Shown: one piece after another, positions 6,001 through 31,971 of the stretch | How positions within the stretch are numbered: the stretch's first letter is position 1 | Layout of the letters: each line of letters starts with the position of its first letter | Assembly (NCBI GenBank): GCA_036172245.1 | Contig: JAYWIR010000027.1 | Location: forward strand, 372,001 to 436,000 | Direction: 5' to 3' | Source of the DNA: Raillietiella orientalis | Lineage: Eukaryota | DNA length: 64,000 nt | The notes under the pieces: generated by a model | Seen by the model: the letters and a program-made list of their open reading frames with translations, nothing else | Told to the model about the DNA's origin: nothing | The model's database searches: none | Position numbers and translations under genes: made by a program

Positions 6001-9000
6001 CTACGGCCGCAGCTGGAGAGGAGTGCCCACGCTTCCCTTCCACCTGTCCAGCGCCTTGCGTGCGGCGTCCATCCTGTTCTGTCTGCGTTGCTGGCGGCGC
6101 TTGTAAAGTATTTCGATGATGATGAGCCCCACACCTCCCACGACGCCGACCGCCACCAGGATGAAGACTCCGGCCATGTTCTCCAGGCCCAGAGTTGCCG
6201 GCGTCTTCTCGTCTTCCATGCAGTTGTTTGCGTTTCCCTGGAGGATCCACCGGTGGTCCAGGTCCTCCATGAACCCATCTGTGGGGAGGAGATGATGGGA
6301 AAAGAATCACTCGGAGGGGAGGACACCGATCGCTGCGCACGGAGGCGTCCGCAAGAGGCCACACGGCTCCAGGAAGAGAGGAAGGAGAGGAAAGATGAGG
6401 GATGAGGGTGAAGTGGAGGGGGAAGGGAGGAAAGGAAGGAGAAGGAAAGAAAGGAAGAAGAAAGGAGGAGGAGGAGGAAGGTAGGAAGAGGAAAGGAAGG
6501 CTCTTCCGCTTTCCCCTTGGACTCCTCCTCAAAAACTTTGCAAAACAAAAAATAAAAAATTACGCACTCTCGTGAAAGGTCAGGATGGTCAGGGTGACCT
6601 TTTCCGTCCAGGGAGATTTCTTCCGGAAGCCGATGGCATACCCTGACCTGCCGAAGAGGTCTCCAGCCGTGACCAGTTCACAGTCCTGCGCGGCCTCGAA
6701 CTCCAGGCGGCTGCTGTCCCAGATGAAAGCGTTGAGCCTCCTGGAAAGGTTGCAGAGCAGCCTTTCCCTCGCCTCCCAGTTCCCCTTGGATTCCCCTCCG
6801 CTCCATGGCTCACCCTTCTTTGACGGCGAGGATGGCTTCCTCGGCACTGTCGAAGTTGCTGCTCTCCATCGTGCGGTACACGTGCGACAGCTCCACCTGG
6901 CGCCGGAAGTACATGTCCACGGCTGAGCCCCTCACCGTGGCGTAGGTGAAGTTGTCCGAGGGATTCCTCAACTGGAAGGATGCGAACAGGTACTCTCACG
7001 GAGGATGGAAGTGGGATGAGAGGGGCCGTGCCTACCCTGGCGTCGTGGATGCCCGTGAGACTTGTTTTGGGGCGGTCCAAGACCAGGAAGGCCGCCAGGT
7101 TCGCCGTGTACGAGGCCACGATGATCATGGCGAAGCCTGCCCACACCATGCCGAGGACACGGGCGGAAAAGCTCCTGGGCGTGCCTGGAAAGAAGCATGA
7201 CCTCGGGTGCAAGAAGTGGGGTGGGGTGGAGCCCCCTGACCTTCTCCGATGCCGCTGTTGAGCAGCACCCCCCAAGCGAACCAGATGGCACTGGATAGGT
7301 TGAGGGCATCCTCCTCGGTCCTGCTCGAATGGGCGAGCCGGTAGCGCCCGAAAGGGGAGAAACGGTCCAGAAGGTAGAGCGCCAGGGCCACCACGTGGAC
7401 AGAGACCATCACTAGGATCCAGAGGGTGTCCCGGAAGGGTTGAAGGAAGGAAACCAGCTTGGAAGTCTTCGGTTGCTACGGAGAGGGGGAAGAAGAGGAC
7501 ATGGGCAAAATCAGGCAGGAGGAAGGGATGATTAGAAGAGGGACTAACCTTCTTCTCGAGGATGGTGATGCCCTGGTACTTGAAGGGCTTGCTGAACTCG
7601 ATGGCCTGAGCGCGTTCCGGGTTGATAGTCAGCGGCGCCACGATGAGGTCCCCCCTTTCGGCGACCAGCTCTCCGACGACCCCGGTCCACTGCTTCTTTA
7701 CTGGAAGGAGCCGAGATGAACTAGTTCAGACCCTCGCAGCAACAGCCTCCTTCGTATGCGCGCGGGTAAGAGGAGAGAGGATCTTCTGTCCCTTCCACCT
7801 CCGAGGGGTCCCCAGCTTCCCTTCCTTCCTCCGAAGGCCCCATTCCCCCCGGAAGGAAAACCCAGGCTAAGGAAGAAGGAAAAAAGGAGAATTCTTTCGC
7901 CTGAGAAAACGCTGGGAAGAACTGCACCTCGGGTTTTCGGGGGCGCCGGCTCCCGCCACACTAGGATTTGTTTCATCAGTCTGATCACGTGGAAGACGGG
8001 GACAAACAAAAGGGGGACAGTAGGAGTCGTGGCAGCGATGACCATGTAATAGACGAGAGAGCGGAATCGAGTTCCACACGGAACGGAGCCAGAGCTCCCC
8101 TCTCCAAACTGCCGAAAAGGAACGCCCTGGACCACGAGGGGATCTCTGGAGCGGGGACAGAGGACGCGCGTACAGAATACGGACCGGGACTCTTAGGGAT
8201 GTGGCCGGCTCACGCGCCTTCGATAGTCCTCATGCCCCTCCCTTTGTCCGTCGCTTGACACTCTCAGAAACGTATTCGTGTGGTATCTGCATAGGGACAG
8301 GCGCAAGACGGTGCTCCTGGAAGTGTGGCTACATGGGCGTCTGGTCCGACGCCGGCCTCGGCCCCGCCACTCTCCCGACCAGTCGCTCTGGGCGGCAGCG
8401 GCAGCGCGGAGCGCAGAGTTTGCAGCTCCCTCCCCTTCTCGTTCAAGATGACCCCCGCGGCGAAGGCGCCACCACTCCTCTTCTCTGCCACCAGTCGCCC
8501 AGCCTCGTGCAGGACGCATGGAAGCTCCGCGAGCGTCCTGACGGGTGGGGGAGGGTAGCAGGACACCCGTGGCGTTTCAGATGGATTCCGGAGTTCCCTC
8601 CCTCTCTGAACATCGTCAGTCTAGGCTCTGCACATAGTCAGCCTGAACGGCCGTAGCCCAGCGACGGTCGGCAAGCTGGCAGAAGGATTCGCTAAGACTC
8701 GCCCGCCAAAGTTGTGGCCGTCGGCCTTCCAGAGAACCCTGGAGAAAGTGGGGCTAGGGATGGGCAGCGAATGCAACTGAAGTGTTCCCCTACTCCCCTC
8801 CTGCACCCGGTCTGTCGAAGGGGGTAGAGGATGGACGGAATCGAAGGAAGCACGCTGACCTTCCCCTTCCCCCGTTCTACCTAGCGACTCACCCGTGACG
8901 TTGTTGTGGACCAGGTGACCGTATTGCCCTCCAACGACCAAGCGGAGCACGAAGGTAAAGTTGACCTTGGCGGCGAGCTCCAGCAGCAGGTCAATGCAGT

Positions 9001-11575
9001 ACCCGCGGCAGCAGTGCGCCTCCGCGTTGGCGGTGTCGAAGTCGCTCCAGCAGGGCGTCTCCCCTTGGCGGCAGACTTCCCCCTTCCAAGGGTGAATGCG
9101 GCGCGAGTAGACGAACGGCTTCTCCTCAATAGTGAGGACCATCAGCAGAGTGGAGATCTCGTAGCCGGCGGGCTTGGAGCGCGTTCTGCCGGGCCATATG
9201 ATGTGCTCGTCGAACACATTGAGCTCGACATGTCTGGTGACCTGGAACCAGGCGTCGCGGGGTTCCAGGAAACCCCGTCCCTACCCGCCCCGCCCTGCTT
9301 TCCCTCGCACGTACCGTGTTGTAGAAATACTGGCCCACCTTGACCTCCCGATGACCCCTTTGTATGTTGATGACGTCGTACTCGGCGTTCAGGCGGTCGC
9401 CGTTCTCGTCGAAGGCCACTTTTCCCGTCAGGCCGTCCAGGAGCACCTGCTTCTTGATGTAACTGGAGAGCAGGGAAGACTCGATTCTCGTCAACCCGTG
9501 GGGGACGAAGGAACCCGTGACCGGATTCATGGGATAGGATCCTCTCCTAAATTCCCTCCCTCGCATTCCCGTTTTCCCCTGGGGCAGCGGCGGTCGATCG
9601 ACTCGCGTCGCCCGGAACAACGCGGCGGTGCCGCCTTCAGGATGCCTTCCCTCCCACCGACCCGCTCCTTCCCGGATCTCACTTGAAGAAGGTGGACCCC
9701 GTCGTCCAGGGGAATCCGGTGTTGTTGCAGTCGCGGGGAGCCATGATGACCTCTTCGTTGGCGTGCATCTCGCCGAGAGCGTGGGCGAGGACGTTCCTAG
9801 GGAATGGACTCTAGGTATTCCCAGCGGGAGCCCGCACACGCCTCTCCCTCCTTCCGGGGGCAACTCACAGACTGTCGTGGATGTGCGCCGACTCGTTGCG
9901 CGCGTAGACAAGGCGTAGGCCGATGGCTCCCTCGGGGACATCCGGCGCTCTCAGAGCCTGCTCCGTGACGATCCACGCGTACCCCCGGGTCGTCATATTC
10001 AGCGCGGCGGCCTCGCGGAAGACGGAGCCAGCGTCTTCCTCGCTGCGAGGTGCACGAGCACGTGGCCTGCTGGGGGTCGAGAACCCTTCCTCCCTACCTG
10101 GCGTAGAGCAGGAACACGCGGGACTGGCTGCTGCTGGACTCCTGCAGGTCCTTGGGCAGCCTACTCGACCCGGGGTCGAATTCGATAGTCCTCTCAATCT
10201 GAAACAAGGGCGAGGAAAAGGGGCAGCCACAAGTGCGGGCAGCGTCCCTCCTTCCTCCTCTTCCCTTCCTGCCACTCGCCGAACTCAGACTGATCGCTGC
10301 CCTCTCCGACCCTTCGAGACCGCACCTTGGAAGTTCCTGCAGCCCCAGAACCTTCTTCTCGCTTTCGGAAGACCGCTCGCCAGTGATCCTTCCTCGCCTG
10401 GTTCCGCAGAGCGGAACGCAGACCCGATTGAAGATCAAAAGGGGAACGACCCCACTACCGATTTACGCTCGAGGTAGGAGGTAGGATGTCCCCACCCCTA
10501 TCGCGGCGCGAGGAGCCACCGTGGCATAGGCTGAGGAGAGCCGGCAGCGCGAGCGAGCGCCTCTCGGACTACGCACCCTGCCTTCTGACCTCACGCCACT
10601 CTATTCATTCGGCCTCCCAGCCGGTTACCCCGCTTTCCTCCCCCACCACGACCGCTCCCGTCTCCTCCTGCTCCTTCCTCCCCCGAGGGTTCCCCCCCCC
10701 CGCCCCTACCTTGATGTTGGTCTCACTGCTCTCGCTCATGTTGAGCGCGAGGCTCTGGAACCGCACGAGCAGAGACCTGCCGTCCGCTCCGCCGCTGTAG
10801 ACGATGACCACCTGCCTGAAGGCGAAGTGCTTCAGCAGTTGCATCCACACATCCGCTTGGTGGGAGAAGGGAGGCACGGTGCGCAGGAAGGACACATGGA
10901 CGTTCTGCCGGAGGGAGACAAAACGGGATGGAAAGGGGAAACGCCGGAAGATGGGGCCGGTGCCCGCCCCCCCTCTCCCACCTTATCCGAGAAGGCGCTG
11001 TCCCTGGAGCTGATGCCCACGACTGGGATGTGGTAGAAGCCGCTCGTGTAGGACACGGCCGCCGAAGAGTAGTCACCGTTTTCGGGGTGCGACACCACAA
11101 TGGCGTATACCTATAGGGGTGGATAGAGGAAGGAGGGGCGCCTCCTCCTCCATTTGCTCCCCACAAGGGGGCTTTGCTCACCTGCCTCCGGATGAGATGC
11201 TGGCAGATTTGCAGCGCGGCACGGATGGGGTTCGGGTTGACCAGCATCGTGGCGTCGTAGAGGGTCACATTCTCCGGGAGAAGGTCCTTCCTCTCGTTCA
11301 GCTCCTTCCGAGGGAGAGGAGAGGGAGGAAAGGGTGTGGTGGTGGGGGAGGAGGAGAAGGAGGAGGAGGATAGGGATTCCGCAAGGGCTCACCTGCACGA
11401 CCTGGGAGAAGAACTCCATGTTGGGGACGCTGCTCAGCACCCCCCCGAAGGAGTAGAACATCGGATTGACTCCTTCAAGGGGGAGTGCCAGCAGCAGCAG
11501 CAGCAGCAGCAGCCCTTGAGGCAGTGGAACGGACATCCAAGTGGCAAGGGAGGCGCTAGGTGCCTGGAGAGGCAT
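6001..11575 (-). CDS. Nmdar1: NMDA-type ionotropic glutamate receptor subunit 1 (GluN1), 15 coding exons; C-terminal end uncertain
   Basis: GT-AG exons with compatible phases: 11575-11393, 11304-11182, 11110-10982, 10904-10710, 10198-10098, 10042-9869, 9796-9683, 9462-9315, 9241-8893, 7700-7549, 7475-7241, 7184-7036, 6971-6814, 6740-6568, 6278-6001. Has a signal peptide (alternative ATG at 11536) and GluN1 motifs [38 protein letters not shown] (pore N-site), [40 protein letters not shown]. Confidence 0.95.
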
Positions 11576-12729: not shown

Positions 12730-13131
12730 CAGCGTCAACAAAAGGGACGTAGATGGGGAGATGCAGAATCGCCATCCATCTTCCCAAAACATCCCAGAAA
12801 GGGCATCGTCAATTCAAACCTCCTCAACAACCATCCCGGCACGCAAGCGGAACAGCCTCCAAGACCGCCGGTAGGAACTTCAGGCGGCCAAAGAACTCAC
12901 CTTTGGATTCCGCAAAGCTCAGACGGTTCACGTGCAGAAGTTCATAGTAGGGATGCAGAGACCGACAACAGACCCATGAGGACGACGAACACATTCCAAG
13001 AGCACCTTCCCACACGATAGAAACCATACAGCATCCTTGTCAAACAACACAGACAGCATGGCAAACAGAGCATACTCAACGGCTTCCACTCGTGGGAAAA
13101 GAAAGGCACACGATTAAGAAGAAACGATGGA
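12730..13131 (+). mobile_element. Possible decayed Penelope-like RT C-terminal/thumb remnant abutting the left arm
   Basis: Broken peptides NLLNNHP and RRTHS..H.AS..SMANRAY resemble the Penelope LN..HP and RK.TH..S.HP..RA motifs; by eye. Confidence 0.3.
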
Positions 13132-13599
13132 ATTCATCTGAGAACATCACCGGAGCGCACCGGAGTCCGCCTCAGAGGATTCGAGAGGACGAGAAGACCG
13201 ACAAAGAAGCTGAGAGGAGGAGCACGATTCCCACCATCGCTCTTGTTGTCCTTTCCGCAATACAGTCATTATCAGCAATTCAAGCGCACAAGGCAACCTT
13301 TTCTTTACGGGAACCCCCAACGCGGCAGCACCTCATTGCGGCCAACACAACGCAACCGACGGGTGCAACCTGGTCCCAGCAACTACGCTCGCCTGCTTCC
13401 AGCCAAGCCCCGCCCAACAACCTACAACCACCACCGGAGTGGAGCACTCGTCACACTCCCCATCCCACGAACGCATGGGGCAGCATCCCCTTGCGCGCAA
13501 GCCTACGCGCGCAGGCTGCTTCCCGAGTCCACACGATTGCCGGAATCCACCGGACCACGCGTCAACGCTCCCACCTCGTTTCGTGCCGGATGCTCACCC

Positions 13600-14164
13600 G
13601 ATCCTCCAGGCGTTTCGTCACGCGTTTCCGCAGACACGGAGACGACCATCGCTTCCTTACCGCGCATCGCCAAGCGACCTCCGACCTCGAAAGCGCAGCG
13701 CACCAGCGCGGCAGGCGACACCAGCAGGAGGAGTGAAAGACGCGAAGCCGAACACACACAGCGTCCACGCTTCCGCAGACGTCAGCAAGCAGCCCCTGCC
13801 GTCGTCCACTCGCTCCGACTCGCTCAAGACTTTCTCTGGACCTGCCGCCACCCCTCCAGCCTTCCCGCGAGCCGCGTCCTCTCTCGAAAGCCCGAAACTC
13901 CGGCTACGCTCCCGTGCCCAACTGGCGCGCCTTCCCTTCCCACTCCGACCCCAACGGCACAGCGAAAACGAACGGGGGACGGCCTCCCTCTCCAATGGTT
14001 TCGTTTCCCACCCGGAAAATGACATGCTACACTCGGATCTCGGCCTCGAATTCCAGAGAGCGCTCCAGCCACTTTCCTTCCAGCAGGCGTCAACAGCCCT
14101 CCCCTCCGTCCGTAGGGTCCGGACGGCAGATGGAGCGACCTCTTCGCATTCTCCCGAAAGCCCT
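13600..14164 (+). mobile_element. Possible Penelope-like linker/GIY-YIG 3' remnant in the arm (mirror ~36346-36910)
   Basis: SLPYRASPSDL and KQPLPSSTRS motifs; 14038-14164 is clearly homologous to 47288-47393(-). Confidence 0.4.
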
Positions 14165-16312
14165 TCCTCACCTCCCTCGGCACAACCCGTCATCGCCGAC
14201 GTCGACGCCTCCACTCTTCCTTCCTTACTTTCCGGCTCCGGAAGCCTCCGCCTACTCCATGCCCTCCAAGAGCGCCTCTCGTCTTCCATGCGAAGCATCC
14301 CAGCAATACCTGTTCGCGTCCGCAAACAAACCTCCCGTCACTCGGATCGCCGCAAAGACAGGTGCACGACACGGTCTTCCCACGCACGACGTGACGAAGG
14401 CGCGCGTGCGCTGGTCCCGTCGACAGTCCACGGAGTGTGTGGCCGCGCCGACGGCCCACCAACACGTCCCACCTCGAAAACGCTCACTGAGCCTGCCGAC
14501 GAGCCTGCCCACCCGCGCTCGCCGATGCCCACGGCCCGACACCGAAACGCGGAATGCCGCCTGGCGACTGTCCCCGCACGCGCATCATCGGCAGCCAACG
14601 CGCAAACATCTCTGCCTCCCTCCGTCGGCAAGCGCGCCTTCTTCTGCTTCTTTCCTTCTTCCGTTTCCCATGAGGGAGTTCCGCTCCTCCTCCCACGGAT
14701 TGCCTCCTTGCTCGCTGCCACTGGCGGATTCCCCCTCGTCCGGCATCCCAGAAGCCGTACGGCCATCTTCGCCGCACCCTGCTCAGCCCTGGCGCTCGCA
14801 CCTTTTCTCGCGTTCGGCGGAAGACGACGCGAGTTTCCGCCAGCGCGCCGCACCTCCCGCTCGCCGCTCGCCACGCGTCGGGACGCCGCGGAACGCCAAG
14901 CGTAGTACAGGAGACAACTTGCGCCCCCCGTCCCCAGAAGCAGGAGCCACGGCGCGACCGCAGCAGACGAAAGCCGCCTCTGTCTTCTCCTTCTCGCCGT
15001 GCACGCGAAGCGGAGACGGACGACCACGAAACCCGGTTGCTCGGCACACGCGCTGGACCACATACCGCACCGTCGGGCTGCTGAAATGCAAACCAGCAGA
15101 AAGGCAGGCAACCGACGACGCTACAGCCTCCCGATCGCCGACGGCGGACTCCCGTGCAAAAACAGCCGAGGGGCGCGATCCGCAGACCAGGATGCCCTTC
15201 GACCTCACGCAACTGCGCAGGTCCAGGCGGTCAGGAGACTGCAGCACGCATTCCTCACCGCTCCACCGCAGCCGCCGCATCGGACTCTCTCGCACCCGAC
15301 GTTTCCAGGATTCGCAGCGTCCCCATGCACACCAAACTGCCTTTCCGGCAGCCCAACGCACACGGCGCGAAAACGCCTCCCCACGAAACCAGGAAACCGG
15401 TTGGCCGCGAGCGCGACACGCTAGTCGCGAACAGCCGAACCGCCATCCGCGCGTCAGGCGCTCCCGACGACCCCCGTCTCGAATCCCAGCCGCCTTGGGG
15501 CTCCGTGCGACTCACAAGAGCGCAGCGGCACGCCGAGCCCCCAAAGGGTCGCGCGCCATCACCCCACCGAGAACACGTGCCAGAGAAGCGCCAAGACTGC
15601 CGTCAGAGACTCGCTCGCGTTCCCTGCCCGCTACGCGCAGACGGGCGAAAGGGGACGCGCCAACACGCCCGTTTAACTCCTCCTCTTTCGCACCACCCGC
15701 GTTGCGATCGATCGACGCCCACGCGCCCCCCGAGACGAACGCAGGGCGCAGCGCGTTCCGGCAGCACCTACCACGCTGCTGCCGAAACACCAGCGGGCGC
15801 GTCCCGCGATGCGCCGCCTTCGCCACTCGGGGAAGTCGGCCTCCCGCACGGACTCTCCTACCTGCGTGACCAACGCACGCCTCCAGCGCGCGTACCAGGA
15901 GCGTCGCCAAATCCGCCACCCGACGACCCGGTCGCGCCAAACTTCACCGGCGACGCCACCTGCCGCGCGGTTCGCCGGCGGCTCCGCGCCAGCATTCCTT
16001 CCCTCCCGTCAGCGACTGCTCGCGGAAGAGCCCAACCCGCGGCGCCCTGTCGAGAGGCCCAACGCGCGTCACGCCTCCCAGATCCACCAACACGCACACC
16101 CCCTGCTCGAAAACGTGCACCCAACACCGCAAGGAGGGCAGACCACAAGCAGGAACCTTCCTCCGCCAACTTCGTCCTCCTTTATTGCCATTTCAACAGG
16201 CCACTGCGGCATCTCATCCGCATCAGCCACGGCACATGCTACAGAGAGACGGAGCCACCTTTTGCCCGGAAACAGCGCCAGCGACACACAGCCAAGGCAT
16301 CTGCTCCCTGCC

Positions 16313-16377
16313 TCTTCTTCTTCTTCTTCTTCTTCATCATCATCATCATCATCCTCGTCGTCGTCGTCGTCGTCTTC
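16313..16377. repeat. Compound trinucleotide tract (CTT)n(CAT)n(CGT)n; mirror at ~34133-34197
   Basis: Seen directly. Confidence 0.9.
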
Positions 16378-16857
16378 GAGCGCAGCACCGTCCTCTGAGC
16401 CATGCGAGCGCCAGCTGCGCAACCATCCTGGCATCCCATCCGTGCTGGGGCATCCCGACGTCACACAACGCCACTCTCCGCACAGGGAAACGCCGGCGGC
16501 GGCCTTTGCAGCGGTCCCTCACAACCGCTGCGTTCGCCGCCACGTGCAAACAGCCACGTGCGCCAAGCGCACCAGGTGTCCACCGGCCACCGTGGCGCAT
16601 CCCGTCGGCGTGCCCGGCCAGCCTCTCCCTCTCGGGTACAACCGCGTGCGCTCCCCGGGAGGCAGAGCACCATCCAAGGCACCAAATCCGCTCCAGCTCC
16701 GATTCATTCGTCTCCTTCATCCTCGTCGCAACGCCAACGCCAGCCGTCCCGCCAACCGGCGTTCGCACCGGCGACGGACGCTCCCATGGCATCACAGACG
16801 AACCGTGTGCGTGCTGCGCTGCTTCTCCCGCGCAGGCACCCAGGTCAGCCCGCTCGG

Positions 16858-17528
16858 TCAACACAGCAAACAGCCGCTGCCGGGTTTCTCTTGCGCCAGC
16901 GATGACTCGTGCAGCGCCCAGGCCAGCGCCTCGTCGTCCGTCTACCGCGCAGTTCCGCCATTCGCAAATCCAACACCACGCTTACCGATCCCCCCTGCAG
17001 CTGCTGCCACCTCGCCGTTCCCTCGGTCTGCGGTGGCTGGGCGGCAGCGCAGCCGTGGTCCTGTCCGTGGCGATGCCTGATGCAGTACTGCTGCCCGCAT
17101 TGGCTGCAAGTGAACGGCACCAATTCCTTTCGGTGACATCCCCGCTCCTGGCAACGCCGCCCATCCTGGCGGAACCTCCGCTATCATCCACTCCGCAGCC
17201 TCCGACCCCCGCACCTTCTGCCGTTTCTGCTTCGGGCAACGTTGGTCCATGTGCTCGCTCACGACTGCATCCGCGAGCTCGCCTTTCTTCACGGGCACCG
17301 GCTCCTGGCAGATGGGGCACGTGGGCACTCGCACATCCAACAGGTGCATGCAAGCGCACCCGTGGTCTCTGTACTGGTAATGGTCTTTGCTGGCGCCCGT
17401 TACTGCGTGAACGGCGCGCGCATCCCCACTTACCAGAAACACTGCCCGCACAGGTTGCAGACGACCGGCAAGAAATCTGAAACGCACCACATAGCACACG
17501 CGGCCACGTGGACGCTCGCTCGCTCGCT

Positions 17529-17559
<31 letters not shown>

Positions 17560-18208
17560 CGGCCGTTTCAAACACCGCACGCCAACACGGGAAAGCAAGA
17601 ACAACACCCACCCACCCGCCTGCCTGCCCGCGTTCCCCTTCCCCCGCAGGTCGCGTTCCCCCCTCCACCCCCACCCCTCCCGAACGGACTCGCGCCGCCC
17701 TCCGGCCGCAAACACCAACATGCAGCCGCTCGCTCCTTCCTCTCACTTCCCCGCTGCAGTGCACACCGCACCCGCGCGATGGCAACAGCACTACGCAACA
17801 CCTCACCACCAGCCGTCCAGCCAGCCAGCCACGGACCCCGGCAACGGCGACAAGTTTCCCCCGGAGCGTCTTCCCCTACGAAACGTCAGGGCGTCGCCTG
17901 CCAAGCGCGCACACGAGCAAAACTCCGACAGCCACCAAGACACAAAGCACCCATTTCGGCTCCAGCCGCAGCTCTCGCCGCCCCACGCCCGCCCGCCTCT
18001 CCGCCTCCGCTACCCACCCACCCACGTTCGCGACACGCAAGCAGCACCGCATCCTTCCCGGACTGCCCACCCGAATGCATCCACCCCGCACGCGGCCTTC
18101 CACAACACACCATCCATGCAGACGGAGCGCACGCGCAGACAGTCAGTCAGTACCTAGCCGATTGCACCCGGCGAGCGAGCAGTGCCTTCCCACGTCGGGC
18201 AGCTCCAT
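16858..18208 (-). CDS. ZFAND2: AN1-type zinc finger protein 2 (AIRAP/AIRAPL-like), left-arm copy, 178 aa
   Basis: Exons 18208-18154, 17476-17434, 17389-17215, 17165-16986, 16941-16858. Translation MELPDVGRHCSLAGCNRLDFLPVVCNLCGQCFCKDH... has two AN1 fingers, a CPIC..H..C finger, a UIM-like DDEALAWALHES and a C-terminal CAAX-like CLLC. Confidence 0.92.
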
Positions 18209-18534
18209 GTCCCCGCGAGGGCACTTCCTCCGGACGTCGTCTTCGTTCGCGCGCCGACGACCCGCGCGTCCGCACGCCGTGCTCACCCGCGGCGGTGACG
18301 CAACGCGCCTGCGTCCACCAGTTGCTCCCGCCGCCCGCGGACGAGGTTGCTGGCGAACGCCGACGCGCGGCGCTGCCGGTCGACTTCCGCTTCGCGGCGA
18401 TGCACCGACGCGGGCGGGCGACCGACGACGGCACCCGCCCCGTTGACGTCATCGCTCGCTCCGACACGCGCTCCAGCCACGCGCTGGACTGCTGCTGCTT
18501 TCCCCCGGCGGACGACAACCGCGAGCCGCACGCA

Positions 18535-18537
<3 letters not shown>

Positions 18538-18565
<28 letters not shown>
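18538..18565. repeat. (CT)14 microsatellite; the mirror copy is (AG)13 at 31946-31971
   Basis: Counted directly. Confidence 0.9.
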
Positions 18566-18571
<6 letters not shown>

Positions 18572-20427
18572 GTTTCTCGCGGCAACGGACGCCGCCGCCA
18601 TGGCGACGACGATATCCACGCACGCGCGCGCGCAGGCTGCCTCACGGATTTCGCACACACGCCGTGCGCGCTCGCGCGTCCCACCTGGCGCTGCAACGAC
18701 GTCCAGCGCCATCTCCAGATGCTGCCGATTTCGCTCGCGAGCTGCCGCTTCGCACCGGCAGAGGGGAGACCGCACGAAACCTTCCCGCCAGCAGAGCTCC
18801 CCCGCAGTTGCTGCGCGTGGCCTTCCGCCTGCGAATGGCCGCTCCTTCCGCAAAAGGTGCCGTTCCGCAAGAAGCGTCGCGCGTGCGTCTCCCAAGCGAC
18901 AGCGTTCGTGGTGCTCATCCGCCGGTTCGCATCGCAGCCTTTCCATTTCCAGCAAGGAGCAGAGGCAGCAGGGGCGAACGGGACGAGGACGCCCGCAGCC
19001 CTGAGCGTTTCGACCCGCGAGCGCAGCACTTCTTCGATCGGATCCCGGGAGCGCAGCGCTCCCGAGGTCACCCGCGCCTTCCGCAGCACCGCCCGCTCGC
19101 CATCTCTGAAGTGCTCGTCGCCGCGTCTACTCGGAGAAATTCCTGAAAGTTGCCTGAGGCTCTTCCCTCTCAGTCGCAAGCGAGCGCTGGCATGGAAAGG
19201 GAGGAAGAGGATTCGGGATTTTCTCGCCGAGAATCGCCGCCGCCAGGAGCAGCGCCGGGCGGGCGTTTCGCTCCGGGGCGCCCCCTGCGAGCGAAGCCGA
19301 CGGACAGGCCCGACGGCACGCAGAGAGCATTCCGCTCGCCGCGTGTGCAGGGCAGGCGCACGCTGCCTGCGAGAAGGCGGCCGGCGGCAAAACGGAGCCG
19401 CACGGCACCGCGGAGAGCTTATGAAAACGGGCAGCGGCTCCGGGGGGCGCACCAAACCTGCCCGGATCCTGGGCAGTCCCCTTCCGCGAGAGGAGTCCCG
19501 TGAAAGTGTGCGACAGGGCGCGGGACGCTGCTGGACCGCCATGCCACGCGAGAGCGGCCACCCCAGCATGCCGAAGAGGTCGCTCGATGGCGGCGACCTC
19601 GGGCTGCCGAACGGCTGGGACACTCGCTCGAAAGCGACCCGTGGGCGGAAGGTGCTGCGGGCGTTTCTTTCAGCCCCTTCCGCCTCCCGGAGAGTGCACG
19701 AAAAACGAAAAGGAGCCTCTCGCGATCGACTTCGCGATTGCTCCCAGCCACCCGAGGATCCGGACCATGCAGACTGCTGAAACCAGGAATCCTCCTCGCC
19801 TCGTCGCGAGCGTGGACCGAAGGGCACGACGTCCCTTTGAACCACGAGGCGCGCCCGGCAGCTGCGAAGAGGAAGCTGCCCGCGATTCCCGGTGAAGCCA
19901 AAGGACGCGTTTCGGCTGCCAAAGTCCGCCGCGGCGAGCGGTTGCCCTGCAAACGAGACGGAGGCAGCCCTGGGGGCAGCCCGCTCCACGGGCGACTGCT
20001 GGTGGTCGCGGGTGCTGCGGTCGCGTCGACCGCGCGCACCTCCGAGAACCGCGCCGGCACGTGGCCGGACGCGCACGCAAAGGAGCATCCGAGGCGGCAC
20101 GTGGGCGCAAAAGGACTGCCGCTCGTGGGTCGGCCGTCGATCCTGCCGCTGCCTCAGGGCTTTTGGTCCGCTGCCACGTCTCTTCCCACCGCCGCCCTCC
20201 TCCGTAGATGGCGCACGCGCGCTTGCGCGGTGTGTGCCAACGCAACGGAGGCTGCCGGCGGAGCCGCAAGTGCACACGAGGCACGAGGGCCGCGGTGCTG
20301 CTGCTCCCGCATCTTCTCCTCGGGAAAGTCCCGTTCCCCTGTCCTCAGGTCGGGAGCGCGCACGCCCGGCCTCTTACCCGGCATGCACGCCAATGAGCTG
20401 CCGCTGCGCCGAGCGCTGCGTGCTTTC

Positions 20428-20433
20428 TTTATT
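20428..20433 (-). promoter_or_regulatory. Putative polyadenylation signal AATAAA of the unrecognised gene (mirror 30074-30079 on +)
   Basis: tttatt about 80 nt downstream of the TGA at 20515. Confidence 0.55.
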
Positions 20434-20514
20434 CGCTCTTGCGAGGTCGCCCACCCACGGCCTCGAGGGATGGCGGGTTTGTGGGCGCAACCCGCGGTGC
20501 TCGCCAACCGCCCA

Positions 20515-23500
20515 TCAGCGCGTGGACGGTCCGACGGCGGCCTCTTCCGCGGGGGGACCAACATCCACGACGTAGCCCTCATCTTCCGATTTCGTGACGT
20601 GGATGGGGATGCAATTCTTCAGTTTCTCGAGTATTGCGCCGATGATCTCGTCGACGGTAGTGAAGTTCTTCCTGGAAAGAGAGGGGGGAGCGACTGAGTA
20701 TCCGCAGGCCGACCGGGCAGGGAGTTCCGTCACCCGAACGTCCCGAGCTCCTGGTTGACGCGGGCGCGTTGCTACGGGGAAGGCTGGTGGCGTGGCCGAA
20801 GGGATGAGGGCTGCTCACAGCGGGCCGGGAGGAGCGGCACCTCCTGCCACCACTGCGCTGCCAGAAACTACCGCGGGCACACCCCTCCTTCCGTCACCCC
20901 TGTCTCACCGTCCCGGGGGCGAGTGGGGGAGAAGAGGCGATTTCCGGCCCAATCCGCGCGCCGCCAGCTGCGGGCCGGACCCATCCTTCCGGCAGGGAAC
21001 CGACGCCCGTGGAGCAGGAAGCCGAGCTTCCTGTTCTCTTGTCGGGGATCGCCCGCGGAACGCGAGGATGCGCCCCTTCCGGAAGCGTACCCCAGACGTT
21101 GGTCGTTGGCGCCTCGCACGTGGCGCCGCCGCGCGCCTGGACGCGAGGGGACCGCCCGCATCCGCGCGGCAGTGCGCGACGGCCTCCGACCCGTGCGGTT
21201 CGCCGCTCGCACGACCGAAGTCGCCGAGCGGTCTGCGAAACCTCCCGTCATCCAGAGCGGAGGAGTTGCGGCGACCGCGCGGCAGCCGCTGACCGTTCGC
21301 CGCAGCCGCGCCCGCAGCAGCAGCTCTGCGGCGGACATGAGACTCGCGCGGAACGCGTGCGACGCGAGGGAAGGCGCGCACACGGCTGCCGAGCGCCCTG
21401 CCAGGGCGTTAGCGCCAGGAAGCGCCTGTGCGGGCGGCCCCCGCGCACCTACGCGTCCCTCGAGCGAACCGAAGTACGCGCGTGTCGCATGAGAAAGGTC
21501 GGGCAGCAGCGAGAGGCTTTCCGCGCACGCACGCAGGACGAGGAAAATTGCCTTTCGCCGCGCGGTGCGTCTCGAGAGCCGGGAGAGCGACATCCCTGCT
21601 TCTCCCGTGGCCAGATTCCAGGCGCCGACGGTCCCATCCGCGCGGGAGGCGGTCGTGGCGGCTGGCTTCCTGCGAGGCGATCGGCGATCCCTTCCCCTCT
21701 CCACCTCCGAAGGGATGCGCCCATCCCTTCCCTTCATCGCTTTCTTGGGCTGTGGCCACCCGCGCTCCGTGCGCGCACGCACCCACTCGGCACGCGTGTC
21801 GCGCATCCAGCACTCTCCTGGCGACGAGTGCGCGCAAGCCGACGAACGTTGCGGGTGAGCTGTCTGTCGCTCCTCCTCCCCAGAGAAAGGCGGGAATCCT
21901 CCTTAACCTTTGGGCCACGCACACCCGGTCGTCCTCCTCGACCACCCTCGCCGGCGCGTGGGGCAGCCAAAAGGAAACGATCGCTCCGGCGGGAAGAGGC
22001 GACCGCACGGTCTCGCCTGCGCCGAAGTTGCGCAGGCACGGAGCCGCCCGCTTGTTGGATCGGGGACTCGTGCGGGGCGCAGCGACGCGAAGCGCCCGCG
22101 CGCTTCCCAGTCTCGCCCTGTTTGCACGCCCCTTCTTTGCACCGCTCTCTCTCGGGAAGCGTCGAGTACGGAGCGCGGAGGAGGGGCCGGCTCCACTTCG
22201 ACCAGCGCGCCCCGGGGGCAAGAATCCTTCGGTTCGGGGACGCACCCCGAGACGCCGAACCGGCAGGGAAGCGTGGTGGGTGCCGGGGGAGGCGGGGGGA
22301 GAGGTAGCGCCACGTCTGGGGAAATCCTCCCGACGCATCCATCCCGTCTTTGGGCTTTCGCCCCCTCCTTCGAGGGCGAGGAGGAGGCGGTGCTCCCGGA
22401 GCGAAGAGAGCCGAAGCTCCTTGGCGCATCCGCTTCCGCTTTCCGTCGTCGCTCCCGGAAAAATGGGGTTCCCTCGCTTCGCCGAGGTCCTCGCCCTTGC
22501 CGGTCGCCACGCTGGGAGCATACGGGAAGCGTCTATGGTGAAACTCGGCTTCCTCCTCCCCGCCCCGCACCCCCGTCTCCGTCCTGGCCTCGCGTCACGC
22601 GCGTTCCTTGCCGAACTGCACGCGGTCCTGAAGTGCAGCGACGGCGTGGGGGTACCGGAGACGTTCCCCAGCTCGGGATACGGCGGGACACGTGGGTCCA
22701 CGGAGTTGGCACGCGTGCGCGGTGGAAGGCGAAGTGTGTGGAGCAGCAGAGGCCGTCGGCGGAAGCGACGCAGCGTGCGCAAGCGGAACGAAAGTGGCAG
22801 CGGTGCGGTGCGGCAGTGATGGCGTTGGGTTCTCCGTGAAGCGACAGCGCCGGCGTCGACGTGAGCAGCGGACGAGGACCCGCGGAACGAATGCAGCGGC
22901 ATCCGGCTTTCTCGTTCGAGACGAAGAGAGGAATTCCGGGAAAGGTGCTGCTGCGCGCGGATGCGGCGGAGACGCGTCGGTGGCGGCGAGGACTCCGGGC
23001 GAGGACCTGGCGTGCGGAGAGAGAGGGAGGCGAGGGAGAGCGGGGACGAAAGGGGGGGGTCACGCCTCGCCGGCACGGGAGGAAAAGAGGTCGCTCTCCA
23101 CCTGTTGGCATTCGCCATTCACGCCTCCTGAGTGCCAGAGAATCGCTCAAACTGCTTACTTATCGTTGGGATCTTCTGTCGTCTCTCTCAGGTCCACCTG
23201 CTCCTGATCCATGCATCCTTGCAATGCATTGAGGAATTCTCTGAGGAGCGAATGCAGCGTTTTGTGGTTGATTCTGGAACGAGAGTCAAGTCTGTGACAC
23301 TGGACAATAGGGAGGTGCATGGAGGGATTCGGGGGCAAAGATGATCTTCAGACACCTCGGGTGCAGCCTCTGATTACGTGATGTTTGGGGAAGGATACGG
23401 TTGAGCCTCAATCTGCTCTCCTGGATGGATTTCGCCCTGGTTTCTGAGCGATGGTGCGATTATTCCTTGCAGCGGAACTCCACCTCTAAACTTTCAGCCG

Positions 23501-26288
23501 AAGGGTGTCCAAGGAAGTTGTGAACCGTTCTCTTTCTCTCTGACCCGTATTGGGAGGAAGGCGTGACATGGTGCCTTCTTCTACGAGTGCTATTCTGTCG
23601 GTGCATTCGCGCACACGCATCCTTGCGACGGAAATGTTGGTGGCACCGGCTTTTGGCTTTAGAACCCTTCTGCAGGAATGGTACAGAGCGTACCGTTTCC
23701 CTTGCGGCGCGTGCAGCTTCTCTATTGCTGGAGGGTGCGGACCTCGCCGCCAAGCGCAGAAACCATCACGGAAATCCCTGCTTACTTGATTGGTGTCTGC
23801 TCTGTCTCGTTGGCATTTGCATCGGGTATGGGAGTTCCCTCGACGTCTGCTTCTCTAAATGGAGACAAGAATTTCTTTTTCAGTCTTCCGTCGGTGGTAG
23901 GAAACTGTTGAAGGGGAATTCCGAGAACTGGAATTCGAGGGACTTTTTGAAGAGGGGTTGTCCCGAGACCAGTTCTTCCTGGTGCTCGGGCGATTCGCGG
24001 TTGCCGGCAAGCTCGATCGGAGGACGAGGTGCTCGTCCACTTGCAGAGCTGGTGAAACCTCGGGGTCTGCTCTTCTTGAGGATGGCGCCCCTACTGCCAC
24101 AGGAGCAGTGCAAGCCATGAGGGTCGTCCGTAGACCTCGCTGTGCATCTCTTCGTTCTGTTTTTCGGATTGGCTGCTTGTGATGTTCCTGGGGCACACAG
24201 TAGAAGGGCGACGTCCTGCTTGGTGTTCCCGTGGAGCTCCGCTACTTTCTGGAGTGTGAGGAGCAGGACGCGGAAGTCCAGGTACGCCCTACGGGGATCG
24301 TCGCGATGACCTTCGAGTCCAGCTGTGTCTGCGGATTCCGGTGGATGATCTCCCTCCGGAGATTGGAAGCGCAGCAGCGGCGCCTTGTCGCAGTGCTTGG
24401 CCTATATGGGGATCATGATCCCCTGGTCCTCCGTCACCCTGGATACAAGAGTTCCCAGTCCTCTGATGGAGAACGCCTGTGCCGGACGTCCTAGCATACG
24501 GAAGATCCCAGAAGCGACGATATCCAGGCGGCGAATGACCCTCGCGACGAGGGTGTATGGGGAGGAGGGAGGGGAAGTAGGAACGATCGACGAGTCCCCG
24601 ACATCGAATTCTCAGGAGTGCATGGCTGCCGGTCACGAAGCGCCAGTTTGCTGATCATGTCCTGGGAATTCTTGTCCTTGAATGGGGTGGATCCTCAGGA
24701 TCAGGACTCTTCGCAAAGCGGCGATCAGAAAAAGTACTCCACTATTCTCGTGCAACGGGACCTTTTCACGTGGGTCCTGCCACCGATACCCAATTCAGTT
24801 GGCGTCTCCGAGGCTTCAGCTTTGACCTTTAGCTTGGAATCACCCTGGTGTCCCGGCGGTTGAGTCTGGCGCAGATGACGGGGGTATGCTCTCCAGCAAA
24901 GCAGTGAACCAGTGAGCTTCTGCTGTGAGGAGCAGCGAAATTTCCGAATGGTTTTCTTCCGCTTCCAGTGAGCACTTGAAGGGAGCGTCATTTTTGAATC
25001 GGCTTATAGCCGGTAACCGACGACCCACTGAAGAATGTGTCGCATGCAGATGACCACCTTGCAAGCTCTATTGTATCACGGTTTGCGTTCGTTCTGGTTG
25101 GACTCCACGCTCCGCGTTGCAGCCACGTTCCGCCCCAAGATTCGCCGTTCCCTTGTTTCCACATCCTCTTCCAGACCTCCGGAAGTAGTCTTGGCACCGG
25201 GTCGGCATTCAACAGGTCGAGAAGGTGGATCCGTCTGCCATTCGCGGAGCATCTGCTCCGACCACTGTAGCGGGATGCCTGTGGCAACCAGTGATAGCCC
25301 GAGAGCCTTCCGGAAATGCCACTCTCGGGCGTGGGATGTTCAGCAAATCGAATTCCTCTTTAGAATGTTTCAGCCGGCAGCTCTGGAGACGAGAGTTGTT
25401 CGCGGATGCAGAGGAAAGTGCTTTGGCTCCGTCGATCTCTTGGCTTGTGAGAAGTTCTTCTGGAGTGGCCTTGCGCAACTGGATGGTTTTCCGTGGACCG
25501 TGGATGCATGGGGCGCGTTTGTACGTGATTGTGCGGTCAGTCGCATCCGAGAAACTTTTGCCCACCCCTAAAGTGGACAGTTTTTCGGAGATCATCGTGC
25601 GTTCTCTGTTCATCCTCGACAACGGGTTGTGCACATGCGTTTCTTGGAGATCCAGCGCTCGCTAGGCGGGCTGGAGGAGGTTGCATTGATGGAGGCTCTC
25701 CAGGCACTCAACCTACTGGTGGTCAGCATACCGTGCTTCCGAGGGCAGGTCTCCCTCTGGTGGGGCTGCACATTGTTGAAGGGCTCACGTAGCTTTGGAT
25801 TTTCGCACGGTTCTTCGTCCAAGAAATCAGTGCGATCCTCAGCTTCCGGAGCAAGCAGCACGGGCGAGTTTTCACGATCAAGAATTTTCGCGCGGACTCC
25901 GAAGAAGGGCGAGCCGCGATGCCCACACCCTCGCACAGAGCTTCCGGACGCTGCGTTCGGACCGCTCGCTCTTTCGCAATTCTCCCGAATGCCTAGGAGC
26001 TCCACGACCGCTCCTCCGGCAGGTCTTCCTCCTCCCCCCGGTGCATGAGAACCGGCTAGGCTGCAGCGTTAGCAGACGGCCCACTGTCCCTCTGCAATCA
26101 ACGGCATTGCGCACACATACAACCGGAAGGACCGCCTGCAGGCAAAAGGGAATTTGGTCTCTTTGGAGTTTTCTTGCGTATAAAAAAAAAAAAAGTAAGA
26201 AAGAGTACCTCTTGATCTCTTGCCCGTCACGCATGGCCGCTAAGCAGCAGCAGCAGCAAAGTAGCAGCAGCTGGATACGAGGAGACAT
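20515..26288 (-). CDS. Putative 4-exon gene for an unrecognised 133-aa secreted protein
   Basis: Exons 26288-26209, 26135-26085, 23273-23160, 20671-20515. All three introns are GT-AG phase 2 and join in frame: MSPRIQLLLLCCCCCLAAMRDGQEIKRRSFRLYVCAMPLIAEGQINHKTLHSLLREFLNALQGCMDQEQVDLRETTEDPNDKKNFTTVDEIIGAILEKLKNCIPIHVTKSEDEGYVVDVGPPAEEAAVGPSTR. Hydrophobic N-terminus; AATAAA downstream. Confidence 0.6.
23370..25650 (-). mobile_element. Decayed near full-length Penelope-like retroelement (RT + GIY-YIG) in the spacer
   Basis: Colinear frame-broken motifs: SKEEFDLL (N-term), KNSQDMISKL..EFDV..IVP (RT), AYLDFRV, LVSGQP (NGYP-like), ELPYP..KQG (linker), SIQES..P (GIY-YIG C-term); by eye. Confidence 0.5.
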
Positions 26289-27302
26289 GTCCGGATTTCC
26301 TGAAAAATGACTTCCGTGAAGTGGATGCGCGGGGGTGCGTGGATGAGGTCCATGCGGATTCTGCGTCTCGAGCGGCAGTTTCGGTCGCCCGCGCCCTTCG
26401 CGAAAATCCCACGCGCCTCGGCAAGCCCTGTGATGAATACGACTCACGGTCATTCTGCGTTCCCCCTGGAGGGCCCGGGACCTAACGGCCGGGCCCATCA
26501 GTCAGCAGTTCCCGCGGGCTGCTGGCTCCAGAGCTGCCGGAACGTGGTCTCCAGGCGCGACTCCAATCACCCTTCGAATCACGGATGCGAGGGCGCGGAC
26601 CTTACGGAGCTCGGCGCCGCACTGGAGCATCCGGTCGTCGCTGCCGGCTGAGCGGAGTTTCCCCAAGAGCGCGCCTCTTTAGCAGGGAAGCCGCGCCTCC
26701 CCAGACTGTCGCCAATGTGGGTCGCGCGAAAATCGGAATCGCTAAAGACACGGAGCTCTGCCGATCCCCCGCCCATCGTCCCTCGTAGAGCTCCTCCACT
26801 TACTGCGGTGCCCTCCAACCTCTCCCGGCAAAAGTCCCTAGAGGGCGCCGCTCCACTCCCACACGCGCGAGAGGCGAAATTCACTCTTCGAGGGGCGAGG
26901 ACCACAAACTCACCGCAACGCTGAAGATGCGTAGGGTCAGCTCCTCCCCGAAAGACGGCTGTTGTGCAAAACAAGTGATCGACCCTTTCCTTCTCGGACG
27001 AGCTTTATAAAGGGAAATTCGGAAAAGCGGAGGGCAGCAAGGAGAGGAGCCCACACGTCAAGCGGGCGGCTGGTTCTCCTCGATATCCCGTGCCTCTCCG
27101 TCTTTTGCAACACCAAAGTGGAACGAATCTCTCGGGACGCAGCAGGCAGAGTCCAGGATCACCTTACGTAGACCAAATTCCACCTAGCAAACTCCCAAAT
27201 CACGTGAAAAAGCAAAAATCGAAGTCCTGAAAGAGGGAGCAGCCGAGCTCGCTATCCAGGAGTACAAGCAAACCAATCGGCACATATCCACGTCCTCCAG
27301 AG

Positions 27303-29992
27303 GCAGGTGGACCTGAGAGAGACGACAGAAGATCCCAACGATAAGTAAGCAGTTTGAGCGATTCTCTGGCACTCAGGAGGCGTGAATGGCGAATGCCAAC
27401 AGGTGGAGAGCGACCTCTTTTCCTCCCGTGCCGGCGAGGCGTGACCCCCCCCTTTCTTCCCCGCTCTCCCTCGCCTCCCTCTCTCTCCGCACGCCAGGTC
27501 CTCGCCCGGAGTCCTCGCCGCCACCGACGCGTCTCCGCCGCATCCGCGCGCAGCAGCACCTTTCCCGGAATTCCTCTCTTCGTCTCGAACGAGAAAGCCG
27601 GATGCCGCTGCATTCGTTCCGCGGGTCCTCGTCCGCTGCTCACGTCGACGCCGGCGCTGTCGCTTCACGGAGAACCCAACGCCATCACTGCCGCACCGCA
27701 CCGCTGCCACTTTCGTTCCGCTTGCGCACGCTGCGTCGCTTCCGCCGACGGCCTCTGCTGCTCCACACACTTCGCCTTCCACCGCGCACGCGTGCCAACT
27801 CCGTGGACCCACGTGTCCCGCCGTATCCCGAGATGGGGAACGTCTCCGGTACCCCCACGCCGTCGCTGCACTTCAGGACCGCGTGCAGTTCGGCAAGGAA
27901 CGCGCGTGACGCGAGGCCAGGACGGAGACGGGGGTGCGGGGCGGGGAGGAGGAAGCCGAGTTTCACCATGGGGGACGCTTCCCGTATGCTCCCCGTGGCG
28001 ACGGCAAGGGCGAGGACCTCGGCGAAGCGAGGGAACCCCATTTTTCCGGGAGCGACGGAAAGCGGAAGCGGATGCGCCAAGGAGCTTCGGCTCTCTTCGC
28101 TCCGGGAGCACCGCCTCCTCCTCGCCCTCGAAGGAGGGGCGAAAGCCCAAAGACGGGATGGATGCGTCGGGAGGATTTCCCCAGACGTGGCGCTACCCTC
28201 TCCCCCGCCTCCCGGCACCCACCACGCTTCCCTGCCGGCTCGGCGTCTCGGGGTGCGTCCCCGAACCGAAGGATTCTTGCCCCCGGGGCGCGCTGGTCGA
28301 AGTGGAGCCGGCCCCTTCCCTCCGCGCTCCGTACTCGACGCTTCCTGAGAGAGCGGTGCAAAGAAGGGGCGTGCAAAAAGGGCGAGACTGGGAAGCGCGC
28401 GGGCGCTTCGCGTCGCTGCGCCCCGCACGAGTCCCCGATCCAACAAGAGGGCGGCTCCGTGCCTGCGCAACTTCGGCGCAGGCGAGACCGTGCGGTCGCC
28501 TCTTCCCGCCGGAGCGATCGTTTCCTTTTGGCTGCCCCACGCGCCGGCGAGGGTGGTCGAGGAGGACGACCGGGTGTGCGTGGCCCAAAGGTTAAGGAGG
28601 ATTCCCGCCTTTCTCTGGGGAGGAGGAGCGACAGACAGCTCACCCGCAACGTTCGTCGGCTTGCGCGCACTCGTCGCCAGGAGAGTGCTGGATGCGCGAC
28701 ACGCGTGCCGAGTGGGTGCGTGCGCGCACGGAGCGCGGGTGGCCACAGCCCAAGAAAGCGATGAAGGGAAGGGATGGGCGCATCCCTTCGGAGGTGGAGA
28801 GGGGAAGGGATCGCCGATCGCCTCGCAGGAAGCCAGCCGCCACGACCGCCTCCCGCGCGGATGGGACCGTCGGCGCCTGGAATCTGGCCACGGGAGAAGC
28901 AGGGATGTCGCTCTCCCGGCTCTCGAGACGCACCGCGCGGCGAAAGGCAATTTTCCTCGTCCTGCGTGCGTGCGCGGAAAGCCTCTCGCTGCTGCCCGAC
29001 CTTTCTCATGCGACACGCGCGTACTTCGGTTCGCTCGAGGGACGCGTAGGTGCGCGGGGGCCGCCCGCACAGGCGCTTCCTGGCGCTAACGCCCTGGCAG
29101 GGCGCTCGGCAGCCGTGTGCGCGCCTTCCCTCGCGTCGCACGCGTTCCGCGAGAGTCTCATGTCCGCCGCAGAGTTGCTGCTGCGGGCGCGCGGCTGCGG
29201 CGAACGGCCGCGCGGCTGCCGCGCGGTCGCCGCAACTCCTCCGCTCTGGATGACGGGAGGTCTTTGCAGACCGCTCGGCGACTTCGGTCGTGCGAGCGGC
29301 GAACCGCACGGGTCGGAGGCCGCGCACTGCCGCGCGGATGCCGTGGGCGGTCCCCTCGCGTCCAGGCTAGCGCGGCGGCGCCACGTGCGAGGCGCCAACG
29401 ACCAACGTCTGGGGTACGCTTCCGGAAGGGGCGCATCCTCGCGTTCCGCGGGCGATCCCTGACAAGAGAACAGGGAAGCTCGGCTTCCTGCTCCACGGGC
29501 GCGTCGGTTCCCTGCCGGAAGGATGGGTCCGGCCCGCAGCTGGCGGCGCGCGGATTGGGCCGGAAATCGCCTCTTCTCCCCCACTCGCCCCCGGGACGGT
29601 GAGACAGGGGTGACGGAAGGAGGGGTGTGCCCGCGGTAGTTTCTGGCAGCGCAGTGGTGGCAGGAGGTGCCGCTCCTCCCGGCCCGCTGTGAGCAGCCCT
29701 CATCCCTTCGGCCACGCCACCAGCCTTCCCCGTAGCAACGCGCCCGCGTCAACCAGGAGCTCGGGACGTTCGGGTGACGGAACTCCCTGCCCGGTCGGCC
29801 TGCGGATACTCAGTCGCTCCCCCCTCTCTTTCCAGGAAGAACTTCACTACCGTCGACGAGATCATCGGCGCACTACTCGAGAAACTGAAGAATTGCATCC
29901 CCATCCACGTCACGAAATCGGAAGATGAGGGCTACGTCGTGGATGTTGGTCCCCCCGCGGAAGAGGCCGCCGTCGGACCGTCCACGCGCTGA
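27303..29992 (+). pseudogene. 5'-truncated copy of the unrecognised secreted-protein gene (3' part of exon 3 at 27303-27344, exon 4 at 29836-29992)
   Basis: Same donor (GATAA|gtaagc) and last exon as the left copy, with one I>L change (GAILEK vs GALLEK). The upstream exon sequence is replaced at the arm boundary. Confidence 0.5.

Positions 29993-31939: not shown

Positions 31940-31971
<32 letters not shown>

Follow-up and report, generated by a model that had tools for sequence, protein, structure and literature searches.

GC- and CpG-rich palindrome arms in Raillietiella orientalis: a probable case of GC-biased arm-to-arm gene conversion

Introduction

GC-biased gene conversion between palindrome arms is already documented in primates and plastids, and in primate X-chromosome palindromes the bias has been demonstrated with outgroups (Jackson et al. 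2021, PMC8981503). Here, we describe a palindrome in 64,000 nucleotides of Raillietiella orientalis DNA (assembly GCA_036172245.1, contig JAYWIR010000027.1, positions 372,001 to 436,000; hereafter the window), in which two 10.1-kb inverted arms, at least 99% identical, flank a unique spacer. The palindrome likely belongs to the GC-biased-conversion class and likely works like the primate palindromes and the plastid inverted repeats. It shares with the primate X palindromes, as the passages of PMC8981503 used here describe them, arms more than 99% identical, a unique spacer, genes in the arms, arm GC above that of the flanks, and shifting arm/spacer borders. The primate gap is about 5 percentage points (46.3 vs 41.2%), far below the 60.9% equilibrium, and here it is 6–16 points depending on the baseline. 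Unlike the primate palindromes of those passages, the arms here are only 10 kb long, the host is an arthropod-like invertebrate, in keeping with its gene content (an NMDA-receptor-like gene, astacins and histone H1), and the bias is one that we infer. The primate cases typically lie on sex chromosomes or in other non-recombining DNA.

Several other systems offer partial parallels. Palindrome P6 of the human Y chromosome has a mean conversion tract of 2068 bp, a GC bias and rare inversions by crossover (Hallast et al. 2013, PMC3723533); its tract length resembles a 1.9-kb identical run in the present arms. P6 arms are more than 99.9% identical and lie less than 2 GC points from their spacer, and four other Y palindromes show no difference (PMC3723533). 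According to Li et al. (2016, PMC5010901), non-coding DNA and third codon positions become richer in GC once they enter the plastid inverted repeat, although that repeat is organellar, multicopy and phylogenetically tested, whereas the palindrome here is nuclear. Histone and ribosomal DNA (rDNA) arrays are GC-enriched by conversion (Galtier 2001, 2003, cited in PMC8981503), and the histone array and rDNA of this genome share the GC level and dinucleotide pattern of the arms; such arrays, however, are many-copy, tandem and under selection, and the palindrome is two-copy. In invertebrate assemblies, gene-bearing inverted duplications for which conversion was proposed have been described in Folsomia candida and Adineta vaga (PMC5490193, PMC7953838). 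The passages concerned give no arm-versus-flank composition, and the term 'GC content' is absent from the main text of PMC7953838. Finally, GC/CpG-rich domains of the honeybee have been ascribed to allelic GC-biased conversion favouring CpG (PMC4406589). As here, a low-CpG housekeeping class lies beside GC/CpG-rich DNA, but the honeybee process is allelic and regional rather than tied to repeat arms, and it forms the main rival background. The literature searched, with most subscription journals outside it, yielded no invertebrate case of GC-biased palindrome-arm conversion.

Structure and age of the palindrome

Self-alignment with blastn revealed one large inverted pair in the window, on a 3.0-Mb contig of the 210-Mb assembly. 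Its parts are as follows.

13118..23201, plus strand: palindrome arm A, near-perfect match from 13132 (blastn and alignment)
27303..37392, minus strand: palindrome arm B, inverted copy, near-perfect match up to 37378 (blastn and alignment)
23202..27302, unstranded: unique spacer, 4101 bp, GC 0.566; no homology detectable between its two ends (end-to-end score reached by 154 of 200 shuffles)
13308..23082, unstranded: GC/CpG-high core of arm A, GC 0.677, delimited by change points and mirrored at 27421–37202
13132..13307, unstranded: low-GC outer lip, about 0.52, identical in both arms; on the B side, the astacin stop codon and downstream DNA
23083..23201, unstranded: low-GC inner lip, about 0.53, identical in both arms; putative exon end and start of a long intron
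13118..13131, plus strand: eroded edge of the arm, matching the astacin coding sequence beside arm B at 11 of 14 bases

The arms are 99.06% identical over 10115 aligned columns, with 39 mismatches and 34 gap openings. A DNA query spanning 18600–23250 matched the genome only at the two arms; a longer, whole-arm query returned 13 short microsatellite matches, the arms themselves not being among those listed. No homology was found beyond the arm ends (114 and 154 of 200 shuffles reached the scores). The arm-to-arm differences form 46 events, which include multi-base replacements and 5–7-bp indels and are clustered (variance/mean 3.7 in 500-bp bins, matched by none of 10000 simulations), although haplotype mixing or polishing could also produce such clustering. 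The longest run identical between the arms is 1920 bp. In the 14-bp eroded edge, arm A has A at all three differing positions, where the astacin coding copy has C or G. A second astacin gene keeps two of the affected residues, so at least two of the three changes in this very small sample polarise GC-to-AT, in DNA that now lies outside the arm. Together, the clustered differences and the eroded edge suggest that the arms are old and have been converted patchwise, as the first-pass annotation had proposed in calling the palindrome old and repeatedly homogenised. The 46 clustered events and the compositional steps at all four arm ends do not fit a young fold-back or breakpoint inverted duplication, in which arms near 100% identical would have their differences spread evenly and composition would not change at the ends.

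It is highly improbable that the second arm is an assembly artefact, with a GC-rich block present once in the genome turned into an inverted repeat by joining its two haplotypes or by a fold-back read. A clustered difference of about 1% would also be expected from two haplotypes or from patchy polishing, and passages of PMC7953838 warn of misassembled palindromes. The palindrome nevertheless has four distinct junctions and a 4.1-kb unique spacer, and the window contains no N; multi-base replacements, 5–7-bp indels, an edge that is eroded yet homologous, and steps in GC at either end of the arms likewise speak against misassembly.

Among 20 isolated single-nucleotide differences between the arms (13495–23047), the transitions comprise nine A/G and no C/T on the plus strand of arm A. 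From 13.3 to 18.9 kb, GC skew is −0.21 to −0.29, i.e. G-rich on the gene-sense strand. The one-sided transitions and the skew suggest transcription-linked C-to-T change; weighing against this, six of the nine A/G sites lie at near-zero skew, and the arms of a second palindrome, described below, lack such asymmetry.

Composition of the arms and position of the steps

The arm core (13300–23100) has a GC content of 0.676 and a CpG observed/expected ratio (o/e) of 1.15, compared with 0.566 and 0.93 in the spacer and 0.612 and 0.81 in the region of a neighbouring gene labelled Nmdar1. In the flanks, GC is 0.559 and 0.512–0.529 (0.529 at 37400–50000 on the right). The elevation that the first-pass annotation had reported from hand counts thus holds, and the counts themselves (44, 44, 50, 26 and 33 of 60) are all exact. 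Six of nine 1-kb arm windows combine GC of at least 0.65 with CpG o/e of at least 1.1, as against none of 662 windows from sampled genome stretches outside masked duplications. Over 464 kb of the contig, GC of at least 0.63 together with CpG o/e of at least 1.05 occurs in 9 of 232 2-kb windows, eight of them arm windows. The richest 9.8-kb single-copy stretch outside the masked duplications has GC 0.643. The dinucleotide ratios of the arm (CG 1.15, GC 1.12, CC 0.83, TA 0.24) are close to those of the histone array (CG 1.21, GC 1.20, CC 0.81, TA 0.29), and rDNA is similar to the arm; in GC-rich single-copy DNA, CG is about 0.93 and CC about 1.03. The histone array has GC 0.64–0.68 beside DNA of 0.30–0.47. 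Elsewhere in the genome, rDNA spacer and expansion segments (contig C371:1-3403) reach GC 0.72–0.81 and CpG o/e up to 1.57.

The predicted GC steps at the arm ends track these ends closely without coinciding with them. The best change points lie at 13307, 23082, 27421 and 37202. The outer two are set back 175 bp from where the perfect match ends (13132/37378) and the inner two about 120 bp from the inner arm ends; intervals of two log-likelihood units around the change points exclude the arm ends themselves. At each of the four ends, a rise in GC toward the arm thus lies no more than 175 bp away. With a fixed 3-kb window, three ends pass the strong-step threshold and the outer end of arm A falls just under it (log-likelihood difference 12.4, step 0.09); within 200 bp and in either direction, 35 of 685 random points pass.

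These steps bear on a rival account, which we consider unlikely: an unmethylated single-copy block was already GC-rich when, not long ago, it was duplicated with breakpoints slightly beyond its edges, and its GC owes nothing to conversion. The genome is indeed a GC mosaic, with GC of at least 0.65 alone in 33 of the 662 outside windows and strong steps in 202 of 685 3-kb windows. The Nmdar1 gene, only 1.6 kb away, has GC at third codon positions (GC3) of 0.85, the low-GC lips coincide with gene ends, and a stretch without internal repeat (C10:924-950 kb) has CpG o/e mostly of 0.9–1.3 at GC 0.54–0.69. Such a block would, however, need both native edges to fall less than 200 bp from the breakpoints, and to do so again in the second palindrome; moreover, none of the 662 outside windows shows the joint GC/CpG state of the arm, and the clustered differences and the eroded edge (3 of 14 bases) speak against youth.

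Genes in the arms and beside them

The arms carry the only two ZFAND2 copies found in the genome, one each, together with the ends of host genes.

16858..18208, minus strand: ZFAND2-type gene, five exons, four GT-AG introns (677, 44, 49 and 44 nt), GC3 0.80
32301..33652, plus strand: ZFAND2 copy of arm B, its ends placed by aligning the two arms
20515..23606, minus strand: putative gene running from the spacer into arm A, with stop-free exons and GT-AG introns; model without homologue
37369..43663, minus strand: astacin gene with CUB domain (Pfam Astacin and CUB), running from the right flank into arm B
14021..14170, plus strand: decayed shared fragment, with a copy at 47281–47420 (minus strand); no family assigned
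6064..11536, minus strand: GC-rich single-copy neighbour (Nmdar1-labelled), 15 stop-free exons, 14 GT-AG introns, GC3 0.846

The assignment to the ZFAND2 (AIRAP/AIRAPL) genes is based on Pfam matches to zf-C2H2_ZFAND2 (PF25403, E 2.6e-12) and zf-AN1 (PF01428, E 1.5e-12) and on 202 homologues; a word-indexed protein search with a stretch of one ZFAND2 exon returned no homologue. We take the gene to be of the B type, with a UIM and a CaaX end. For the Nmdar1 gene, we presume that the first-pass label, which agrees with sequence motifs, is correct. Three of the ZFAND2 introns (16942–17433) are only 44, 49 and 44 nt long, with purine-rich acceptors.

The putative gene has its 2488-nt last intron and last exon in arm A, and arm B holds the 3' part only. 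Two of its exons yielded no homologue in an Atlas search, a word-indexed protein search (last exon) and Pfam. The final two codons and stop of the astacin gene lie inside arm B, and the gene matches the second astacin, at 52.4–55.8 kb, exon by exon. Arm B is thus native at its outer end, by the astacin stop, and arm A apparently at its inner end, if the putative gene is real. This arrangement would follow from a spacer flip by arm-to-arm crossover, from boundary creep, or from an inversion with duplicated breakpoints. A transposon with long terminal inverted repeats, or a giant transposon, was rejected because no transposase family was found in 44 arm and spacer open reading frames (ORFs) and because the arms carry ZFAND2 and host gene ends.

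The first-pass annotation had cited three internal controls for GC enrichment of the arms, two of which are weak. The long arm intron is indeed richer (GC 0.696) than two short putative spacer introns (0.54 and 0.52), but the gene model behind all three has no homologue. The fragment shared between 14 and 47 kb is truly homologous (none of 200 shuffles reaches its score), although the count is 24/42 vs 21/42 rather than 25/42, and its claimed identity as a transposable element found no Pfam match above cut-off; no copies were detected beyond one at 44.5 kb. Over 116 counted columns, 11 differences are G/C in the arm and 5 A/T, unpolarised and not significant (p ~0.2). As for acceptors said to lack T-rich tracts, three of the four in ZFAND2 are T-poor (1–3 T and 6–7 pyrimidines of 17), but that of the long first intron has 8 T; acceptors of short Nmdar1 introns average 5.3 T and 12.8 pyrimidines of 17.

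In the rest of the window, the two minus-strand astacin-CUB paralogues 10 kb apart (37369–43663 and 52375–55788) have GC3 of 0.58 and 0.81, respectively. Two short direct repeat pairs are also present, 228–387 / 3917–4076 (98% over 160 bp) and 60704–61022 / 63495–63812 (84% over 323 bp).

Recomposition in place and the source of GC

Two further comparisons point to recomposition of the arms in place. A 7-kb palindrome on contig C1 that carries ANAPC11, picked irrespective of GC, has arms 99.7% identical with clustered differences and a frayed tip; a GC step, upward into the arm, lies no more than 55 bp from each of its four arm ends (0.59–0.63 vs 0.31–0.48). In addition, ZFAND2 stands out in GC against its own zf-AN1 family: the arm locus has GC 0.67 and domain GC3 0.77, compared with 0.35–0.43 and 0.24–0.47 at two single-copy zf-AN1 paralogue loci.

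Recomposition could instead stem from another process that accompanies the palindrome, such as a changed spectrum of mutations, loss of gene-body methylation, or more frequent breaks with ordinary GC-biased conversion between alleles. CpG-poor outside windows (n=70) have GC of only 0.375 ± 0.048, and large GC classes are thus set apart by methylation state alone. Copies without methylation have an estimated equilibrium GC of about 0.62–0.64 to begin with, honeybee allelic conversion favours CpG in the passages of PMC4406589, and the arm is distinguished by CG and GC over CC and GG more than by GC content itself. Against these points, the CpG-poor ANAPC11 gene body inside the arms (CpG o/e 0.36–0.51) still has GC 0.479, a level that few of the 70 CpG-poor windows attain (4 reach at least 0.457), and allelic processes have no reason to stop less than 200 bp from the arm ends while sparing a 4-kb spacer. 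We regard such a process as decidedly unlikely.

The observed arm structure, composition, edge positions and clustering of differences are probably best explained by an old palindrome recomposed through GC-biased arm-to-arm conversion, an explanation in which we infer age, conversion, bias and spacer flip. The genome's only ZFAND2 locus would have undergone an old inverted duplication, and patchwise conversion would keep the arms about 99% identical. In the conversion of newly arisen differences, G/C would prevail somewhat more often (about 60–65% if the arms are at equilibrium), lifting the arms above the GC level that their context would otherwise give. The outermost 120–175 bp may lag because conversion is rarer near the homology edge, because the edges were annexed later, or because gene ends are constrained. 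The first-pass view that the palindrome was driven toward GC is supported for recomposition in place, by the edge-tracking steps, the single-copy paralogue contrast and one replicate palindrome; its naming of biased arm-to-arm conversion as the specific source goes beyond these observations.

The strength of the bias can be approximated from GC odds ratios of arm to baseline, which are 1.60, 1.65, 2.0 and 1.33 in the present palindrome and, for ANAPC11, 1.54 and 1.57, four of the six falling at 1.54–1.65. In a two-copy equilibrium model that we derived, the odds that G/C prevails are given by the odds ratio itself, which corresponds to 57–67% if the arms are at equilibrium. This range falls inside the bias of about 70% reported for primate palindromes in the passages of PMC8981503, making the odds ratios compatible with such a bias. 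Tentatively, and with some doubt, conversion may have brought the old palindromes here to an equilibrium in which GC has a near-constant advantage (odds ratio about 1.6, 61–62% transmission) atop a local methylated or unmethylated baseline, enough to lift housekeeping ZFAND2 from the AT-rich class of its paralogues and to erode polypyrimidine tracts.

Observations that weigh against biased conversion

A number of observations count against biased conversion as the source of GC. The palindrome under study was chosen for the GC trait itself, and edge steps recur in only one of four further palindromes (ANAPC11). The DHODH pair (23 kb, 99.96%) has GC 0.50 and no rise, the C106 pair (at least 12 kb, 99.9–100%) has GC 0.51–0.52 and no rise at the two inner ends examined, and the steps of a pepsin-like pair (3.5 kb, 99.8%) lie 270–990 bp off the arm ends, with GC (0.574) above the outer flanks and not above the spacer. 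A mixed array with 98% identity has GC 0.55, and 278-bp satellites only 0.40–0.43. The flat DHODH and C106 pairs are the most identical, as expected if they are young, and the DHODH pair fits the class of young fold-back or breakpoint inverted duplications (99.96%, GC 0.50).

At silent sites, ZFAND2 GC3 (141/176, 0.80) is not above that of single-copy Nmdar1 (716/846, 0.85; p=0.14), the second astacin is about equal at 0.81 (first astacin 0.58), and short-intron GC is alike (0.65 in ZFAND2 vs 0.63 in Nmdar1). The GC-richness of Nmdar1, which the first-pass annotation had mentioned as a caveat, is accordingly weightier than stated there, with introns of GC 0.52–0.70 and single-copy stretches up to 0.643. 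A RING-finger gene on contig C26, for which only one copy turned up, has GC3 0.90, and conserved genes can thus be GC-rich without a visible partner. The ZFAND2 domain exon has no excess of GARP residues (one-letter code), and the GARP/FYMINK comparison is mixed (GARP −0.6, FYMINK −2.5 residues, with 140 of 150 homologues aligned).

Proxies for the direction of change disagree. A dispersed histone H1 copy in the window (46100–46800) matches the 4.3-kb unit of the histone array on contig C8 at 72% identity, is apparently frameshifted and has GC 0.60 vs 0.66 in the array; its A/T stands against array G/C at 74 positions, and its G/C against array A/T at 30. Histone-array singletons, however, show 15 GC-to-AT and 13 AT-to-GC changes, and rRNA pseudogenes 73 and 75. 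With such near-balance, no excess of AT-ward mutation is seen against which a bias could act. It also implies GC equilibria of about 0.62–0.64, so that non-methylated DNA may by itself drift to about 0.6, and conversion between the arms would then have less GC to add. Lastly, two of the six odds ratios, 1.33 and 2.0, depart from the others, and the baselines were picked after the fact.

Other repeats encountered in the genome

The C106 palindrome (66001–111962, arms of at least 12.3 kb at 99.9–100%) and a palindrome at C1:9440928-9454628 (arms of 3.5 kb at 99.8%) were both reached via aspartic-protease matches. At C27:497670-519997, a 5.46-kb unit forms about 2.5 tandem copies and one inverted copy, 98% identical and adjoining a 99-N gap; 18 of its ORFs, scanned against Pfam, gave no family above cut-off. 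Satellite arrays with a period of about 278 bp lie at C82:5001-11479 and C39:2011375-2016659, one of them next to the histone array where a contig ends. Among candidates from a search by CpG-rich pattern, three pairs (C2, C10 and C11, the last in two 10-kb pieces only) are not palindromes.

Significance

At this single locus the mechanism is familiar and unproven, and the value therefore lies in a genome-wide series rather than in this palindrome alone. The R. orientalis genome has many small palindromes of differing apparent age, sharp arm edges and two background GC classes, and such a genome would offer, within one species, a measure of how strong ectopic conversion bias is relative to allelic bias. 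If old palindromes here do share an equilibrium with a fixed GC advantage, arm GC would date the palindromes of this genome, and some of its sharp-edged single-copy GC/CpG islands could be former arms.

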